A DNA stretch of 64,000 nt from Podarcis gaigeae (taxonomy: Eukaryota). The position numbers were made by a program, and so were the translations under genes. Below are positions 436 through 63,707 of the stretch, piece after piece; the stretch's first letter is position 1, and each line of letters begins with the position of its first letter. The stretch lies in assembly GCA_964106915.2 (NCBI GenBank), contig OZ066918.1; one strand, given 5' to 3'. The notes under the pieces were generated by a model. The model had not been told where the DNA came from. It ran no database searches and saw only the letters and a program-made list of their open reading frames with translations.

Positions 436-1194
436 TGTCAGGACTGCCGCTAGGTCCCAGCTCACAGAGGACCAACGCCCAGTGGATATTATATACAAAA
501 GTCTTTATTGAAGTTTAGTTTCCATTTCCAAGCTCTGGGCGCGCAGACCCACGTCTTAACGCTAGACCGGCTAAGTCCCCTCTGACTCGCTGCTAAAGCC
601 ACACCAGTTTAAGATTCTCGCTTTGCTCCACCTCCTACGCTGCTCCTTCCTACGCTGGGTCCTTCTGCCCTCTGGGGTTATCTCCTTCCTTGATTCCTCT
701 GAAGCTGACCCCCCTGAGTCCCGCCCTTCCTTCCGGCGGGCTTTAGGATCTGGCTCCCTGTCAGGACTCCCTGCTGTGCCGCTCGCCTGTACATTTGAAC
801 TTGGCGTGCGCGCCCAGCCGGTAACCTTCCTTCTGACCGTTTCCCCGCTTCCGGATGTGGGCGTGGCCAGCCCTGCCTCCTCTCCTCCCGCTGGTGGCAA
901 GAACACTGGTTCCGACTCCTGGGACTCCCCCTCCCCACTGCGCTCTGGTGGGGAAGATGGTCCCGATTTCCAACTGCTGCTCAGGGACTCCCCGCTGGCC
1001 CCTCCCTCTTGAGGTTTCTCCCCTGGAATCTCCCTTGCTCTGGCCATCGGTGCTCCCTTCTGCGAGTCTTCCGATTCACTAGAGAGGCTTGCGGAATGAT
1101 CTGGCAGCTGTCACTTCCTGCTCCCCCTTCGTCCTCTTCCTCCTCACTCTCCATTTGCTCCCCCTCCTGTGTCTCTCCTTCTGAACCCCTGACA
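436..1194 (-). mobile_element. Solo LTR (Gypsy/ERV-type), 759 bp
   Basis: TGTCAG...CTGACA termini; perfect 5-bp TSD AATAC at 431-435 and 1195-1199; AATAAA on the minus strand near 505-510; CpG-rich relative to the flanks. Confidence 0.85.
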
Positions 1195-11333: not shown

Positions 11334-13798
11334 GTAGGACATTGTCAAATGCTTGAGCTTGGTTTGCTTATTTGTATTGTCCTTCCCCCAAACCTTGACC
11401 AGGTTGCTTTGAGCTGCATTTTCATGCTTGTCAAAGAATGCTTTTATCCTATTTCTTACAAGTGTGGAGTGTGCTGTGTATGCCCAAAACTAAACCCAGA
11501 ATTTGAAGCACCCCTGTTCAGAATACTCAAACATTAGCAGTCTTCCGAAAGAGATATGTTTATATATTGTGTCTGCTTTCAACCTTGGAATAACAAACAG
11601 GATAAGTATTGTGATTGGAGGACAGAACGATTTGGATGTATGCTGGGATCTCAGTTTATAAGAGGATGCAATTGCTTCTGACTTTGAAGATAGCAAAATC
11701 CATGCAACTGATTAGTATTAGCTCTGGCTGCAGCTTTTTAACTCTTCACATTTCCCAACTTAATTTGAAAATGAAGCACTCCATTTAATGCCTTGTGTGC
11801 ACTTTGAAATATAAGTGAACTCAACTTCTCCACTGCAGATCCAGATATTAGATGAAAATGGCCCTCTGAGTAAACAATTTCCATCTGTACTCAAAAGTGT
11901 TATTGCCATGTCCATTTGGACCACTGCATATGCGTACCATGCAGACACAGAAAGCAGTTATATCTAGAACAGAAGCTGGCATCCTGAGAATCTCAGCTGT
12001 TGTGGTTTAACTTTGAAGGCTGTCTTGGTTGTAGAAAACAGTTGGAAAGGAAAGTCAGACAGAGCTTTCAGCGGTCAGATAATCAGGTTTGCTCCACGCA
12101 GCTCTCAGTACTTCATTCTGCCCTACCACTTGGCTCATTCTTCCTCAATCTCTGTGCTCCCCTTCTGTTTCCCTTCCTTCCAAAGGCCTATTGCCATAAA
12201 AAGAACTGCCCTTGTTAACTCTCAGACCTGCTTTATACATCATGCTTGCACATGCAATATTAGTGATGCCCTTCCCATTAAGCAATGTGGTTCATACCCA
12301 TGTGATGCAGCCGTCAAGCAGAAATTTACAAAAATGGGCTCTCACTGGGGTACATGGAATGGTTTCAGAACAAATGGTCTCAAGATAGCCTTCCATACAG
12401 CTGGTGCTATTACAAATCAGTGTGATCAATATGATTAAAATCATGTTTCCTATTTTGAAATCCAGACATTTCTTGAGCAAAAATGCATTCTGGCCAGCTC
12501 AGATAATTAGAACAGACTGGGTTGCATTTCCCTAAGGATGGGATTACAGTCTCTGGAGTTCACAGTCTGGTGTGCTGCTGATTGATGAAGCACTGTCACT
12601 GGAACTGGTAGATCGGCTGCAACCCCTGCTAGATTGTCCAGCCACAATTATTGGTGCTCTGGTAACATTTAGTGTGGACTCGTGAAATGCACTCTGTGTG
12701 ATATATCCTTTGAAGACCTTGGAAACTTCCATTAGTACAAAACACAGCAGCTACAGTGTATTAGCTATGGAGACTGCATCTAACCAGTTCTTAAATAACT
12801 ATAATAGTTACTGCTTCTTTTCTAGGCACATTTGAAAGTGCTGGCTATTGCCTGGATAACTTGGTGTCTGTTACTTAAAGGACTACTCTCTCCCACTTGA
12901 TTCTACCCAAAATGCAAGGTCTTCCCTCAAGGCCTTTGTTTGGATCCCACAACCATCTGACCTTGTATTTACAATGTCTTTATTGGACTAGCTACCCCAC
13001 CACTCATTATAAAGTGTTTTTGGCAGCAAATTCCTTTGCTTATTTCCCAGGCATTTCGGTGTGTTGAATAGCTGATTTAAATTGCATTTTGATGTCTGGT
13101 TTGGGTTTTTTGGGATGGATGCTGCTGTTTACATTGTTTTGATGTTGAATTTTTGTGTTGTTTTTGTTTGTTCTTTTAACTGCACACAGCCTTTGGGGCG
13201 TAAGCCAAAGGTGGCTCATAAAAAGATCAAAATGAATTTGTTTGCAACTGAATGCTGCTTTTATGTAATGCAAAGGCACAACTCAAAATGTTTGGCCATT
13301 CAGCCCACAGACCCTTTTGTACTATGGAGTGATCTCTCCTTATAGCTGAAGCATCAGCAATGTAGTTAGCCACTAGGGCACCTGGGGCGGCATGCGTGCC
13401 TGCACCCAGGGGCAAGGGAAGCCACCCACTGGGTGGGGTTTAGCCGGGGCAGGCCGCCGCCTCTCCCTCATCTGTAGGGCGGCTGAGGGGGGAGGCAGCA
13501 GGTGGCTGCAAGCTCCACACTGCCATTTCAGGAGTGCGGAGCCTGCAGATGCATCAGCCACCATGTCACTCCCAGGAGAAATGCATGGCTTGGACGCACT
13601 GCAGGCCCTGCGGTAAGTGTGGCATATGGTTCAAGTGGTTTCCCCGCTTCTTTTCCAGGGAAAACTTGCTCTTTAGCTCTAAGTTGAGCAAACATCTATC
13701 TGGAAAAAGCCTGAATTGCTCGTTAGCTCAAAGTGGGACAAGAGGAAGTGTGCTAAGCTTGGATTGCAACAGGTGGCCAGAACTTTCCTGAAACTAGG

Positions 13799-14241
13799 TG
13801 TCAGGGAACTGCCATCAGCTCAGAGGCAAGAGGTGGAAGGGCAGTTGGGTTACAGGGAGTCTCCAAAGATTGTGAGAAGCAGCACTTCCTTCACGGAGGA
13901 GGAAAGCCACGCCTCCAGTGGGGAAGGGGTGCAGGGCTCGGAGTATGCAAGGGAGAGACACAGCACCGAGCGTGAACAAAGCGCAGGTCCCTCTCTGCCC
14001 ACGCCCTCTTTGCGCAGTCGGTTTACACGCAGAGAAGGGAGTCGTAGGGTGGGGGTCAAAAGACTACTCTGCTGGGGAAAGTTTAAGGACCGCCCACTCC
14101 CAGATTCTGCTAGTGAGTGAGCAGACATGGAATTAAGTCGATCTGCATTGTGAACGTTTTGGACAGATAATAAAGCCTTGAAAAGACCAATGGGGAGTCT
14201 TGCCTGTTTGCTCTCGAGCAACCATGCCGACACACATAACA
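13799..14241 (+). mobile_element. Solo LTR, 443 bp
   Basis: TGT...ACA termini; 5-bp TSD CTAGG at 13794-13798 and 14242-14246; AATAAA at 14169; starts TGTCAGGGAACTGCCATCAG like the copy at 63297. Confidence 0.88.
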
Positions 14242-14872
14242 CTAGGGATGATAATGGTGTTTCTGTGTTAGATAACTGAAGTGGGAACACCCATATTGTT
14301 TGTTTTATCGAGCTTAGGTACTTGGGCATAAAACAAGGGTATAAGCCATCCATATGGGCACTGTAGATGATCTTGGACATATACTGGATTGCATCACCTT
14401 GATTCTGGTACCTGTGACGCACCTGCCAGTTCCTGGCCCCCAATATCAAACCATCAGATAAATGATTGTCCTGTGAAGATGGTTTCTTCACAAGATGTTT
14501 GTGAAATACAGCCTTTCAAAACTGGAAAGTTCATTAGAAAGTGATTAGTTTTGAGAGATTGTTTCATTTTAAACCATGTTCTTTGAAAGAGATAAACTTC
14601 TTGTAGCCAGAACTTTTTTAAAAAAGAAAACCAACCTATATATATATGGGTGTGTGTAAAAGAAAATGGACACATGGCCATGCTGTGATATAGAATCAAA
14701 AGGCAAACAATGGTTCTTCAGAAGGAAAACTAGCAAAGGAACAGGAATAAAACTGTAGACATACTTGCCATGTTGTGTCCATAGATAGATTTACTGTCAT
14801 TCAGCTGATCCTAGTGCAGATTAAACCAATAATTGCAGCAGGTATCCAACCATGTGTATATTTCACCAACAG

Positions 14873-15946: not shown

Positions 15947-16033
15947 GGAGATAAGGGAGATTCTGACAATGCACTTGCAGGAGGTAAAGGGGAACCTGGA
16001 CCCCCTGGTTTACCTGGACCTCCAGGACCAAAG
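15947..16033 (+). CDS. COL13A1: Collagen XIII exon [29 protein letters not shown]
   Basis: tag|GGA...AAG|gtgagt, 87 bp; corresponds to [29 protein letters not shown]. Confidence 0.95.
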
Positions 16034-19488: not shown

Positions 19489-19830
19489 GTGAGTCACCTT
19501 TCCTCCTATATGCAGTGGGGTTTATAAACAAAGTTCTGTTACATAAAAGGGGTAGAATCAGCAACCGGTGGAAGATGCCTAGGAGGTCATCAGGTCCAAC
19601 CAGTGCGCAGGATCAGCAAAGCAAGATGCTGCTGCAGCATCTCTGGCAGATGGCTGCCCATCACCCTCTGCTTAAGTACCACAAGCAAAGGAAGAGCCCA
19701 CCACTGCCCAAGCCAGCCTGGTTCACTGTCAAAGAGCTCTTAGCATTAAGAAGTATCTACTTTTGCAATGTTTTCATTTTTAAAGGAAGAAAGCAAGTTA
19801 TTTTGTAAGCATGAGTTTTTCTTTCATCAG

Positions 19831-19884
19831 GGACCTCCTGGACTACCTGGTGTCGCAGGTCCTCCAGGACTACCTGGACAGAAG
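19831..19884 (+). CDS. COL13A1: Collagen XIII exon GPPGLPGVAGPPGLPGQK (start of COL3)
   Basis: cag|GGA...AAG|gtaaga, 54 bp. Confidence 0.94.
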
Positions 19885-23097: not shown

Positions 23098-23187
23098 GGT
23101 CTTGATGGCTTAGCTGGAGAAAAAGGTGATCAGGGGATGCCAGGACCTCTAGGCCTAACAGGTCCAATCGGACTTCCAGGATTAACA
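23098..23187 (+). CDS. COL13A1: Collagen XIII exon GLDGLAGEKGDQGMPGPLGLTGPIGLPGLT
   Basis: tag|GGT...ACA|gtaagc, 90 bp of perfect Gly-X-Y. Confidence 0.9.
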
Positions 23188-23841
23188 GTAAGCTATCCAA
23201 AGAATTAGATCATCCCCCCAAAAAACCCACTTCTGTGGGGAGAGTCAAGCACTACAAAACACTGCCTTGAATTCTTTCTCAGCTGAAGCTGAGCTAATGG
23301 TTGCTCACCTGAGGCTCCGCAGTAAGTTTGTGAAGGAGGTGAGATTTAAAGCAGGAACTACCACTACCACAGTTCTCTATACTATAGCACCATAGTGCTG
23401 CTTGCTTGAGAAAAAGGCTTGTCAGAACCACCTACTTTTGAAATCGATTATGTTTGAACAAAGAGGGGGGAAAGTGGAAGCATCTATGCCTCAGATAAAA
23501 CAGGTTCCAATCAGTTGTGTGCAGGGAGGGCACAATTTCTAGAAATATGCAATGTGTGTTTCTTAAAAGTTTGGCCATTTTATTTCCTTTCTGAACATAC
23601 TTTGCCAGCTTAAGACATTATCTAAATTTGTTAGAATGGTGCCCAGCTATTTTGACAAAGATCAAGATAGGTAGCACAGCTAATTCAGGCACACTGGAGG
23701 GGTGCAAAATGATGACTGCAGTTCTTCTTCTCTAATGGATGTCTTCATCTGAATGTTAAGCCATCTGAATGCTCTTAATACTGTAAAGAAATAAAAATCA
23801 TACCAGTGCTTGGGTTTATGCTATACTTGCTGCATTTGCAG

Positions 23842-33874: not shown

Positions 33875-33928
33875 GGTACTCCGGGACCAGTTGGAGTTCC
33901 AGGACCAGCAGGACCAAAAGGAGAGAGG
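33875..33928 (+). CDS. COL13A1: Collagen XIII exon GTPGPVGVPGPAGPKGER
   Basis: cag|GGT...AGG|gtgagc, 54 bp. Confidence 0.95.
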
Positions 33929-34723: not shown

Positions 34724-34777
34724 GGCAATAAAGGAGACCCTGGAACAGCAGGACCAACAGGACCAGCAGGACTTCCT
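34724..34777 (+). CDS. COL13A1: Collagen XIII exon GNKGDPGTAGPTGPAGLP
   Basis: tag|GGC...CCT|gtaagt, 54 bp. Confidence 0.95.
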
Positions 34778-52985: not shown

Positions 52986-53028
52986 TCATGCACAAGTGCA
53001 GAAATCACTGCCAGACACAAAAATATAT

Positions 53029-53163
53029 AGTTATAGGTAGGTAGCCGTGTTGGTCTGCCGTAGTCGAAACAAACAAACAAAAAATCCTTTCAGTAGCACC
53101 TTAGAGACCAACTAAGTTTGTTATCGGTATGAGCTTTCGTGTGCATGCACACTTCTTCAGATA
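53029..53163 (-). mobile_element. Penelope-like element terminal repeat with hammerhead core
   Basis: GGTAGCCGTGTTGGTCTG...GTAGCACCTTAGAGACCAAC...GGTATGAGCTTTCGTGTGCATGCACACTTCTTCAGATA. Confidence 0.75.
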
Positions 53164-53842
53164 GATATAATTCTTCAAAAGATATAATTGTCTTGTGATC
53201 AAGATTCCTGCTGTATTTCACTATTAGGACTTTTTTTATTTAGGACTTATAAAATGGTGACAAAAGTAGTTGCATTTGTGATAGGAAATAAGATTTAAAA
53301 GGATTTTGATGTATTAGTGATGAAATATTATTTCTATCTTATTAGTTATACATTGAGTACTGTTATGTTATTCATATTTACTTTTTTCCCCTCTCACCTT
53401 TCTCCCAGTAGAGGACCCAAGGCAGCTCACAGCTAAATACAGCTAAAACATGCACAATCGGTATAATTATTAAAAAACAAATTTTGTTGTTGTTGTTGTT
53501 TAGACAAATAAGTATCCCTATTAAAAACAGCCCTGAAAGACTTCTAAACCATTTAAAAGCATAAGTAGATCACACACCTTCATAAGGCTCTGCTGCAACA
53601 GCCAGTTAGTGGCCAAAGGTTTCTGAATCAAGTTTTTGCCTGTCCACAAAAGGAAAGAGCCAACCTAGCCCTCTGTGGCAATGACACAATTTGAGAGCAG
53701 TCCACTTAGCATGCCCATGAAGGTGGCAAGACATGGGAGTAAGGCCTCTCAATAATATCTCGAAGTCTGAGTAGAGTTCTATAGGCAGATGAACCCAATT
53801 CTCCAGATACTTTTTAATGTAGTTGAAACATTTTATAAACAT

Positions 53843-54069
53843 AGTTACAGATAGGTAGCCGTGTTCGTCTGCCATAGTCAAAACAAAAAATTCCTTCCAG
53901 TAGCACCTTAAAAACCAACTAAGTTAGTTCTAGGTATGAGCTTTCGTATGCATGCACACTTCAGGTGTATCTGAAGAAGTGTGCATGCACACGAAAGCTC
54001 ATACCTAGAACTAACTTAGTTGGTCTTTAACTTAGTTGGTCTTTAAGGTGCTACTGGAAGGAATTTTTT
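53843..54069. mobile_element. Penelope-like insertion with inverted terminal-repeat arms
   Basis: Arm 53843-53964 is followed by its partial inverted copy 53967-54069; flanked by a 13-bp direct repeat ATTTTATAAACAT (53830-53842, 54070-54082). Confidence 0.8.
53967..54004 (+). ncRNA. Minimal type I hammerhead ribozyme motif
   Basis: GTAT-CTGAAGA-A-GTGTGCATGCACAC-GAAA-GC-TC^ATAC: CUGANGA and GAAA core, palindromic helix II, UH site, helix I GUAU/AUAC. Confidence 0.7.
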
Positions 54070-54689
54070 ATTTTATAAACATCTTACTGGAAGCCTCAGG
54101 AAACAAAGCAGGACTTACTTCCACATAATTTTTTGCTGGGGCAAACTGCGTATTTTACCAGAGGCATGGTCCTTCCCTTTCTTTGCACACAATATACTCA
54201 CATTAATTTATTACAGGAAGCAATCTGCCTGACATGTTTAAGAACAGATGATGCCACCTCAACAGTTTTTAAAAAACGCAACTCCAAACAAGTTGCTGTT
54301 CGACCCTTACCTGCGCTAAACAGTGGTAATGAAAAGTGGGGAAATGATGTGCCACCCTTTCAGTGAATAATTATGGGCGAAAAGCCTACGCTGCGGTGGC
54401 AGCTTTGAACACACAAGACTCGTACTTTTTGTGCGGCATCGAAGATGAAGAGGGACATCTAGCAACACAAGATTCCTAACTGATGCTTCCTTGGATCTCA
54501 AGCGCGCTCTGCAACACCCTCGCCAAACAGCGATCTGAAGCAGCTTGCGAAAGAGTACAGCGGTGTTGTAATACCAGGTCCAAAGAAGCACCACTGCACA
54601 GTATTTTCCCAAAGAACCCCGCCCCTTTCTGTTTGGGCAGGTATTCCTTGGCAGAGAGCTTTCTTTTAGGTTAAAGTCACCGCTGCAAA

Positions 54690-56390
54690 GCAAGAATTAG
54701 AAGAAATCGCGAAGAATTCGGGAGCGGGAGGCGCTGGGAACCTTCAGAGGTAGGAAGAGGGTTAGTGGGTTATTTCGAAAGGGTGTCCCGATGGCTCCAA
54801 AACTGACCCGCAGCCGATCCAAACGAAGAGCAAGGCTAAAAAGCCCCGCTGCTGCAACAGCTGCCAGCATCGCTGCTCCCTTTCGACGACCCGGCCCCCT
54901 TGGCGGCTCTTCCCTGAGGCACCAGGAGAGCGCCGTCGACGCCAGGGCTGGCGGCGGGGGCGCTCGGAGGACCGCGCTGCCGTGGCTCCTCCTAGAGGTG
55001 GTATGTGGAGAAGGACCCCCCTTCCCCTCCCTACCACCGGCCTCCAGAGCTGCCGCCATTGAAACCATACAATAAAAGCGACGGAAGGGAAAGGAGGAAG
55101 CGCGACGCGGGCATTGCGGCGGCGCCGGAGCGGAGGCGGCAGCAGGCGGGCAGGTGACCGGGAAGGCTCGGGGCGGGGGGAAAGGCTGCTCGGTTAATGC
55201 AACCCCGGAGGACAAGCCGTTGGGGCCCGCAGGGGAGGGTGGGGAAGGAGGAGGCCTGTCGCCGTCACTGGCCGCCCCCGCCCCTCACCCAAAGCGCCCT
55301 CGCGGGAAGGGAAGCGGCCCCCGAAAGCAGCCGCAGCCTCCCGCCCCCCCCATCCCCACGCACGGAGGCGATGCGGGGAGAGGCGCGTCATCCCCGGTAG
55401 GGAGCAACGCGAGGGGAGGAGAGAAAAGGCGGCAGAGAGAGCCGTTGAAACAGAAAAAAGCGGGAGTGGCGGCACCTCAGTGCGCGAGATGAGAATCTCT
55501 TCCCGCTGAGGCTGCGGCACTTTTCCCGCTCCCGTTTTGTCCTCCTCAGAGGTCAATAAAATGCCGCCGAGTGGCGTGAAGGGGGGGGGGAAGGAGCCGC
55601 CGGCCTCTGCGCTGTTTCTCTCTACCCCCCCCCCCATTTCTCTCGGGGGTCGCGATTCCCTCTCTCCCTCCCCACCGCACGGCTCTCCCAAGGGGGAGTG
55701 AGGTGAGGAGAGGTCACTTCCCCGGCGCTTCCCTTTCCGGGGCGCCCTTTCAACGAGAGCCGGTTAACGGCATCTCAACCACTCCCCTCCCCCCCCCCCC
55801 GCTCATCTCGGGCCACAAGCAAAACGAGGAGAGAGGCGGGAATTTGACGAGAGAGCCTGGAGATGGACGCCTCCCCCACCCGCCCCGCCAGAGGCTAGGA
55901 GGACGGGAATTGCGCGGGAAAGGGAAGGCTTTGGTTTCCCAGGGTTCCCTGCGCCTGACTGGCGGCTCGCGCACAAGCGCACGCTCTCCATCCTGCCTCT
56001 TTAAACGCTGCCCCCCCTCACGCCCACCCACACACCCCCTTTAAGAAAAAACTGCCAGCCCGCGTCTTTCAACCGTCCGACCTATGAGCGCGTGCCCTAA
56101 AGAACGTTAGGCGGGGCGGGTCCCTCAGTGCGCGCGCGCCCCGCCCCCGACTCCGTATTAGCAACATCTTCCTCCACGTTCTCGCTCGCTACGTAAATAA
56201 GTTTTAATGCTTTGGCGGTTTGAATTTGAAAGAAACAGAAAGGTTCCTGCTTGAATTTAAAGGCCAGCCCCTTTAAAGAGTGGGGCGTTCTAATATGAGG
56301 ACGAGCAATGTCACACCTCCCTCTTCTGAGAGGGAATGTTATGGATGGAGGAAACGGCCGCGGAGCATGCGCAGTGCGTTTCTTTTTATG
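54690..56390 (+). promoter_or_regulatory. MACROH2A2: CpG island / promoter and non-coding first exon(s) of MACROH2A2
   Basis: Sharp rise in GC and CpG; GC boxes, YY1-like GCCGCCATT (55052), NRF1-like GCATGCGCA (~56365); candidate donors CAG|gtgacc (55153) and GAG|gtgagg (55702). Confidence 0.8.
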
Positions 56391-63296: not shown

Positions 63297-63707
63297 TGTC
63301 AGGGAACTGCCATCAGAGCAAGAAACGGAGGCAGGGCTCCCGAGTGATGCCGGAGAGGGGACGAGCAGGGGGGAAGGATTTCAACGTAACACCCATAGAG
63401 CAGAGAGGGAGATGGAGGAATTGGTGACAGGGCTCCAAGACCCTTCCCCCGAATCTAGTGGAGAGAGCGCTGGGACGCCCCTGCCTTCCCCTTACTTGTG
63501 CAGACGCGTTCCGCGCAGAGAACATAGGCGGAGACTCGGGGTCAAACAGCTTCTATGCTGGAAGAGATTCAAGAGACGCCCACTCTTGGATTCTGCAAGT
63601 GACTGACAGGTCACGGAGGGCGAGCTCCGACCCTAAGCATGGTTGGGCAAGCAAAATAACTGAACTGAAGTAAGGTTACGCACAAGTAACCCCTCACATC
63701 CATTACA
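63297..63707 (+). mobile_element. Solo LTR, 411 bp, related to 13799-14241
   Basis: TGTCAGGGAACTGCCATCAG...TTACA; 5-bp TSD CTATC at 63292-63296 and 63708-63712. Confidence 0.88.

Follow-up and report, generated by a model that had tools for sequence, protein, structure and literature searches.

Two solo long terminal repeats (LTRs) in the window, the whole 64,000-nucleotide stretch of Podarcis gaigeae DNA analysed here (contig OZ066918.1), carry long open reading frames, and the question raised by this locus is what such frames encode. The preliminary description had proposed that they specify a protein ending in an Arg-rich/LLCW module, either an accessory protein belonging to the LTR itself or a C-terminal extension of the Pol polyprotein.

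Analyses of the two repeats, LTR A and LTR B, indicated that the observations behind this proposal were correct. Both had the TG..CA ends and 5-bp target site duplications (TSDs) of an LTR retroelement (Table 1), and both frames were open from LTR base 2, for 106 codons in LTR A and 102 in LTR B. The final 47 residues aligned without gaps at 29 identities. Differences between the two modules at codon positions 1, 2 and 3 numbered 13, 7 and 27, respectively, and the synonymous swaps that had been reported amounted to 11 codons with a synonymous difference only. In addition, the BLASTN similarity between the repeats (13972–14120 against 63458–63606, 68%) stopped at the stop codon. Frames A and B were open in 67 and 59, respectively, of 2000 dinucleotide shuffles (about 3%), so openness alone is weak evidence; it is the codon pattern across subfamilies that carries the evidence for coding.

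LTR A is the older copy, with 85–92% identity to its nearest siblings, and LTR B is a young copy (95–98%). A third solo LTR, of family C, was absent from the preliminary description. Its frame ends in RRKEQRRRWSKARILNWCGF, a diverged version of the module motif, and in the window copy the frame is shifted early in the LTR. Collagen-type Gly-X-Y coding repeats were dispersed across the window, which suggests that introns of collagen genes hold LTRs A and C or lie close to them. A CpG-island-like, GC-rich stretch (58% GC over 54001–56000) is probably a host promoter, and a short repeat end that recurs in nested form, in both direct and inverted orientation, probably represents LINE/SINE tails.

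Table 1. Coordinates of features in the window, counted from its first nucleotide.
Feature	Position	Strand	Remarks
Solo LTR A (family A)	13799–14241	+	TG..CA ends; 5-bp TSD CTAGG at 13794–13798 and 14242–14246
Pol fossil in LTR A	13800–14120	+	final 106 codons and stop; acidic spacer, then basic module
47-aa Arg-rich/LLCW module of LTR A	13977–14117	+	
Site homologous to the 11-nt self-primer, LTR A	14096–14106	+	putative transcription start and U3/R border; overlaps the final codons of the frame
AATAAA in LTR A	14169–14174	+	likely polyadenylation signal, from sequence
Solo LTR B (family B)	63297–63707	+	TG..CA ends; 5-bp TSD CTATC
Pol fossil in LTR B	63298–63606	+	final 102 codons and stop
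47-aa module of LTR B	63463–63603	+	
Primer-homologous site in LTR B	63582–63592	+	
Third solo LTR (family C)	436–1194	-	TSD GTATT; 99% identity to siblings
Diverged module of LTR C	about 574–666		
Collagen-type Gly-X-Y coding repeats	1297–1430, 15995–16028, 19828–19870, 23140–23191, 33881–33914, 34739–34772		
CpG-island-like stretch	54700–56200		probable host promoter
Nested copies of a short repeat end	53027–53163, 53841–54074		direct and inverted; probable LINE/SINE tails

LTR searches of the lizard's own genome returned 1104 (A), 1431 (B) and 2759 (C) first-look candidates, and 40 of each were scored. By eye, TSDs were perfect in 19 of the 30 family A copies fetched, and in family B paired LTRs about 5.1 kb apart enclosed gag and pol. 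The full-length elements had TG..CA LTRs, 5-bp TSDs and a polypurine tract (PPT), with pol in the -1 frame after gag and encoding, in order, PR-RT-RH-IN-SH3-chromodomain-acidic tail; env was looked for in these elements and none was found.

The frame continued from the chromodomain into the LTR. It passed through the acidic tail and the PPT into U3 of the 3′ LTR, which, as one of the two earlier proposals had it, makes the LTR frame a C-terminal extension of Pol entered at VRELPS. Three family B elements (L091, L092 and L096) read from the chromodomain through GEEVD, joined directly to VRELPS, and on to LLCW, with the stop at LTR base 310. In full-length relatives of family C the frame was unbroken over 1566 aa, and the LTR encoded the final 208 aa of this Pol; for family D, many among the 150 matches listed had a pol frame of 1331 aa. 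Family A was represented by L319/L321 (the same element as L018), in which an LTR 87% identical to that of the window lies in frame behind the chromodomain and PPT. In total, 66 of the 114 chromodomain-bearing loci were open through to the module; these loci, some of which are the same element fetched twice, comprise 46 distinct sequences in 15 subfamilies at 90%. The Pol tail after the chromodomain is 160–370 aa long and terminates inside the 3′ LTR, which holds between 72 and 208 Pol codons depending on the family, and the module was conserved regardless of spacer length.

Pfam searches placed SH3 (PF24626) and chromodomain (PF00385) matches above cut-off in families B and D. PF00385 was marginal in family A, and family C had the SH3 match and a chromodomain that could be aligned but was Pfam-negative. 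Relatives in UniRef included full Pol proteins of Podarcis muralis, named "Gypsy retrotransposon integrase-like protein 1", that end in the same module. Word-index protein searches found only three P. muralis Pol clusters and one contig protein, which is weak evidence of absence outside lacertids. Reverse transcription copies U3 to both ends of an element, and the 5′ and solo LTRs therefore also carry the frame.

Several further features of these elements were recorded. Family D has many near-identical copies with the unbroken pol frame, and the LTRs were identical within each of the three two-LTR copies checked (L211–L213), pointing to very recent activity. A slippery heptamer, G GGA AAC, lies at the gag-pol junction of family B (L091:1622–1628); no such heptamer was found in families C and D, and the frameshift signal is therefore not generalised. 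The same heptamer occurs in PEG10. One contig (C32, 29.5 Mb of 1515 Mb) supplied 16 of the best 30 matches of an internal-region search and is possibly a non-recombining sex chromosome; unlike these matches, the young family D copies were dispersed across many contigs. An env-like fragment of an endogenous retrovirus (L097:7368–8069, minus strand) and a copia-type element (L127:1639–4317, minus strand) adjoin or sit within elements of this lineage.

Analyses of the tail revealed two features upstream of the LTR. The chromodomain of families A–G lacked, as judged by eye, the first and third cage aromatics; it thus resembles group II chromodomains and does not have the intact Y/W/Y cage that defines group I, as both groups are set out in the accessible part of PMC3605345. 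In addition, 41 of the 46 intact tails had two FxG(F/I) motifs, each behind a hydrophobic helix and an acidic Ser/Thr linker, and family C had a single, atypical one. The pair lies upstream of the 3′ LTR, outside the window (L091:5027–5270, the tail of L212 and relatives). A helix, an acidic Ser/Thr linker and FxGF are the layout of the TND-interacting motif (TIM), which binds LEDGF/HRP2, and the sequence layout of the tail motifs fits the definition given in the portion of PMC9987994 available; JIL-1 carries DFxGF, according to an excerpt of 10.1101/624023.

The genome contains two LEDGF/HRP2-family loci, and its LEDGF exon matches the P. muralis protein exactly. An AlphaFold model of the tail had a folded chromodomain and short helices before both FxGF motifs, the rest being disordered, and in a relative a single short helix was predicted over VKQLLCWRKF; confidence outside the chromodomain was low (mean pLDDT 60). 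Prediction of the lacertid LEDGF IBD in complex with the first of the two FxGF motifs gave 0.22 twice, against a mark of 0.34 and with controls that were not folded, and weighs neither for nor against binding. Based on their layout, we give the binding of LEDGF/HRP2 by the FxGF motifs an even chance. Searches of Pfam, PDB and the ESM Atlas with the module or tail gave no match, the best Atlas hit (0.77) being a lead at most. A reading of LLCW as a PCNA PIP-box was dropped, as the Gln of the consensus is missing from its expected place.

Other chromoviruses in the same genome end their Pol differently. Lineage H (L306, L308, L309 and L252), with 53–55% RT identity to the LLCW lineage, has intact cage aromatics and neither FxGF nor LLCW. 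Its Pol ends 116–118 aa inside the 3′ LTR with RRSARL, which is absent from the LLCW module and is identical to the HMGN acidic-patch motif RRSARLSA over its first six residues (PMC12487698, available in part). In a third lineage (L181/L310 and L312) Pol stops directly after the chromodomain, and the copies seen were decayed. Based on the lineage with the intact cage ending in RRSARL, and on the LLCW lineage having FxGF motifs and a cage short of two of its three aromatics, we read the module as a basic import and chromatin-contact end, comparable in role to the C-terminus of Ty1 integrase. The frames in the window are, in our interpretation, the last 102–106 codons of a Ty3/gypsy chromovirus Pol and likely the chromatin or nuclear-import end of an integrase targeting tail, a reading to which we assign a probability of about 0.7. 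For the LTR-encoded module taken by itself, a chromatin or nuclear role is probable, as judged from its sequence.

The same Pol tail might instead act in particle assembly, with the module forming an amphipathic helix whose Cys and polybasic run anchor it to membranes, possibly with lipidation, or bind the genomic RNA. The module resembles the palmitoylated helix-8 tails of receptors. In each of the 15 subfamilies the invariant Trp has a Cys as its neighbour (preceding it in 14, following it in family C), Lys or Arg comes next in 14 of the 15, and the one short helix is predicted at the LLCW site. However, the elements have no env, the module stands at the integrase end beside the chromodomain and FxGF motifs, and a nucleosome-type motif occupies the corresponding position in the parallel lineage H; we therefore consider an assembly role unlikely.

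We also examined how the module could be expressed. The sequence following the 5′ LTR is complementary to an 11-mer within the LTR, and at the homologous site 23 of the 29 two-LTR elements had a perfect self-primer match of 10–13 nt. These matches comprised seven different sequences that co-vary with their partner at the sequence level, and the folded leaders of families B and D had z values of -4.0 and -4.3. Members of the Tf1/sushi group self-prime in this way, with the RNA 5′ end serving as primer (PMC4600332 and PMC6317226, both in the portions available). Transcription of the lizard elements would start about 24 nt 5′ of the stop codon; this start, like the processing of Pol, is a prediction from sequence. 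A start so near the stop codon would place nearly the whole frame in U3, so that it would be transcribed solely as the 3′ end of genomic RNA, and with the frame upstream of it a solo or 5′ LTR would not transcribe the module. The self-primer overlaps the final 7–8 codons of the frame. Relative to the putative start, the LLCW codons occupy positions of about -32 to -21 even in families as distant from one another as B, D and C, and lineage H has an AT-rich box at that position. Dual coding, for protein and for cis elements, is likely in the module region.

A separate accessory protein, made from the LTR frame by spliced or internally started RNA or released from Pol by protease, is improbable. 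In its favor, the long disordered spacer could house a protease site, and the module is kept independently of spacer length (72–208 Pol codons in the LTR). However, frame A has no Met and frame B only an unconserved one (Met39), all intact families have the frame joined to Pol without a break, its position in 5′ and solo LTRs is upstream of the putative start, and solo copies lose it freely (family A was open in 5 of 27). The accessory protein put forward in the preliminary description is not supported on these grounds.

The selection acting on the frame was estimated from natural copies of 10 subfamilies, in rows picked for an intact frame; family C, both E clusters, family F and a copy with a deletion could not be aligned and were left out. 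To keep the primer codons out of the estimate, the module was taken as the 37 codons that lie 5′ of the primer site. The Nei-Gojobori dN/dS of the module was 0.21 (0.11–0.35), while the chromodomain had 0.11 and the spacer 0.57; other frames of the module gave 0.77–2.8 and the antisense mirror frame 0.35. Maximum likelihood omega over 15 rows was 0.28 for the module (LRT against 1, p = 5e-12), 0.11 for the chromodomain and 0.48 for the spacer, and the two FxGF blocks upstream of the LTR had values of 0.07 and 0.22. Second codon positions of the module were the most conserved (0.26/0.12/0.39 for the three positions). Synonymous swaps involved both first and third positions (Ser as TCA, AGT or TCC; Leu as CTT, TTA, TTG or CTC), and the DNA under the LL residues was highly variable (CTACTC, CTTCTA, CTTTTA, TTGTTA and ATCTTA). 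Together, the codon patterns indicate protein-level purifying selection on the module between subfamilies, as had been claimed from the two LTRs, with ratios of 0.21–0.28 rather than near 1. We are nearly certain that the Pol tail is under protein selection.

Changes within families had a different character. Private changes ran at about 2.4 non-synonymous to 1 synonymous. In the family A module, synonymous changes made up no larger a share of the shared changes (12:6) than of the private ones (24:10; p = 0.76); for family B, this contrast was not significant in the module (p = 0.13) and had p = 0.01 in the spacer. The frame was open in 5 of 27 copies of A, 45 of 52 of B and 25 of 26 of C. Frame-disrupting indels, which had been named as a feature that would speak against coding if frequent in consensuses, were counted in family A: indels common to at least three copies were in frame in 2 of 3 cases in the coding part and in 0 of 5 after the stop, and 22 of the 30 private indels broke the frame. 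As the copy-private changes look neutral, the solo LTRs hold only a Pol fossil, and LTR A of the window is an old copy whose frame is open by luck.

Part of the conservation of the module is probably at the level of DNA, based on the lower dS of the module (0.88, compared with 1.39 in the chromodomain), two nearly invariant stretches (GTC-AA and CGC-CCA-CT) and the fixed distance of LLCW from the putative start. The suggestion that promoter motifs might explain the conservation thus held in part, for the promoter and primer overlap at the 3′ end, but dual coding does not account for the frame-specific omega. A functionless peptide, with Pol running on to the next stop and conservation due to promoter and self-primer DNA or RNA elements of U3/R, would agree with the primer overlapping the last 7–8 codons, the LLCW codons at the TATA position, the lowered dS and the lineage that ends Pol at its chromodomain, but it has very little probability left and is largely refuted for the module as a whole by an omega of 0.21–0.28 that excludes primer codons and is specific to this frame and its antisense mirror, by the conserved second positions and widely varying DNA under LL, and by spacer length changes that preserve the frame.

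For the targeting tail that we favor, the following course can be proposed. As part of Gag-Pol, the module would be translated from the genomic RNA's 3′ end only, and the first 11 nt of the transcript would, from their complementarity, self-prime reverse transcription. The tail presumably stays on integrase, where the two helix-acidic-FxGF motifs would dock on the TFIIS-N-terminal-type domain of LEDGF/HRP2. Nuclear import and contact with nucleosomes or DNA would come from the Arg/Lys-rich module encoded in the LTR, with its short LLCW helix. Together, the FxGF motifs and the module would replace the methyl-lysine reading lost from the degenerate chromodomain. Solo LTRs would not express the module and would decay neutrally. 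We speculate that this integrase swapped methyl-lysine reading for mimicry of host-factor ligands, with tandem LEDGF/HRP2-binding FxGF motifs and an LTR-encoded basic module, and would be tethered to H3K36me3 gene bodies like lentiviruses by means of a copied cellular linear motif; as a whole, this scheme is tentative and has somewhat less than an even chance of being correct.

In the HIV nef and MMTV sag genes, coding sequence overlaps U3. Nef and Sag are made as proteins in their own right, each from its own start and RNA, and the lizard frame, which has neither a start codon of its own nor a frame apart from pol, is the end of Pol; the comparison with Nef, Sag and Rev made in the preliminary description concerned the wrong family, as the elements are env-less chromoviruses. 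They share with the Tf1/sushi group (V-clade) of vertebrate and fungal Ty3/gypsy chromoviruses the gag and -1 pol arrangement, the PR-RT-RH-IN-SH3-chromodomain order, the 5-bp TSD, the lack of env and, judging by the available text of PMC6317226 and PMC4600332, self-priming by the transcript 5′ end instead of a tRNA. They differ from this group in the 160–370-aa tail ending in the 3′ LTR, in a chromodomain without the first and third cage aromatics and in the two FxGF motifs. This apparent kinship is drawn from layout and self-priming.

A closer parallel than Nef, Sag or Rev is provided by plant CRM group A elements, and by some Beta elements, in which Pol runs on into the 3′ LTR, carrying a putative targeting motif, the CR motif (CHDCR) in the CRM case (PMC3059260 and PMC3605345, as far as their accessible parts describe it). 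In the CRM elements the true chromodomain has been lost and tRNA-Met serves as primer, whereas the lizard elements keep a chromodomain upstream of the PPT and self-prime. Membership in CRM was rejected on these differences and on the lizard host, and the likeness to the CR motif is one of description, not of alignment. Pol running into the 3′ LTR is thus already known; in the literature searched, which left aside older sushi papers, Repbase reports and supplements, neither such a tail in vertebrate chromoviruses nor FxGF in retrotransposons was described, and the accessible part of an LTR survey covering Sushi (PMC3601003) had no match for "ORF" or "open reading".

The tandem helix, acidic Ser/Thr linker and FxGF resemble the TIM or IBD-binding motif of KMT2A, JPO2, IWS1 and JIL-1 (PMC9987994 and 10.1101/624023, in part). 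Unlike the cellular TIMs, the lizard motifs belong to the integrase of a retrotransposon, and they lie upstream of the LTR and not inside it. The same host domain is used by lentiviral integrase, which engages the LEDGF domain through its folded core and is not known to use a TIM. The C-terminus of Ty1 integrase likewise combines an import signal, a bipartite NLS, with a short host-docking motif (PMC7459421, in the section available). Ty1 differs in belonging to the Copia superfamily and in targeting Pol III. Its C-terminal integrase tail is not known to be encoded by the LTR.

Vertebrate chromoviruses are the ancestors of the PEG10/RTL genes, and little is known of how they choose insertion sites. 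In this genome Pol occurs in three states: without a tail, with an RRSARL tail behind an intact cage, and with FxGF motifs and an LLCW tail behind a degenerate one. Young copies are numerous for two of these states, which makes targeting testable from existing insertion sites. For annotation, the ORFs of such solo LTRs are Pol fossils and not genes. In the elements themselves, protein, promoter and RNA primer appear to be encoded on the same 60 bases, and, if the FxGF motifs bind LEDGF, these chromoviruses would have converged on the lentiviral tether by motif mimicry.
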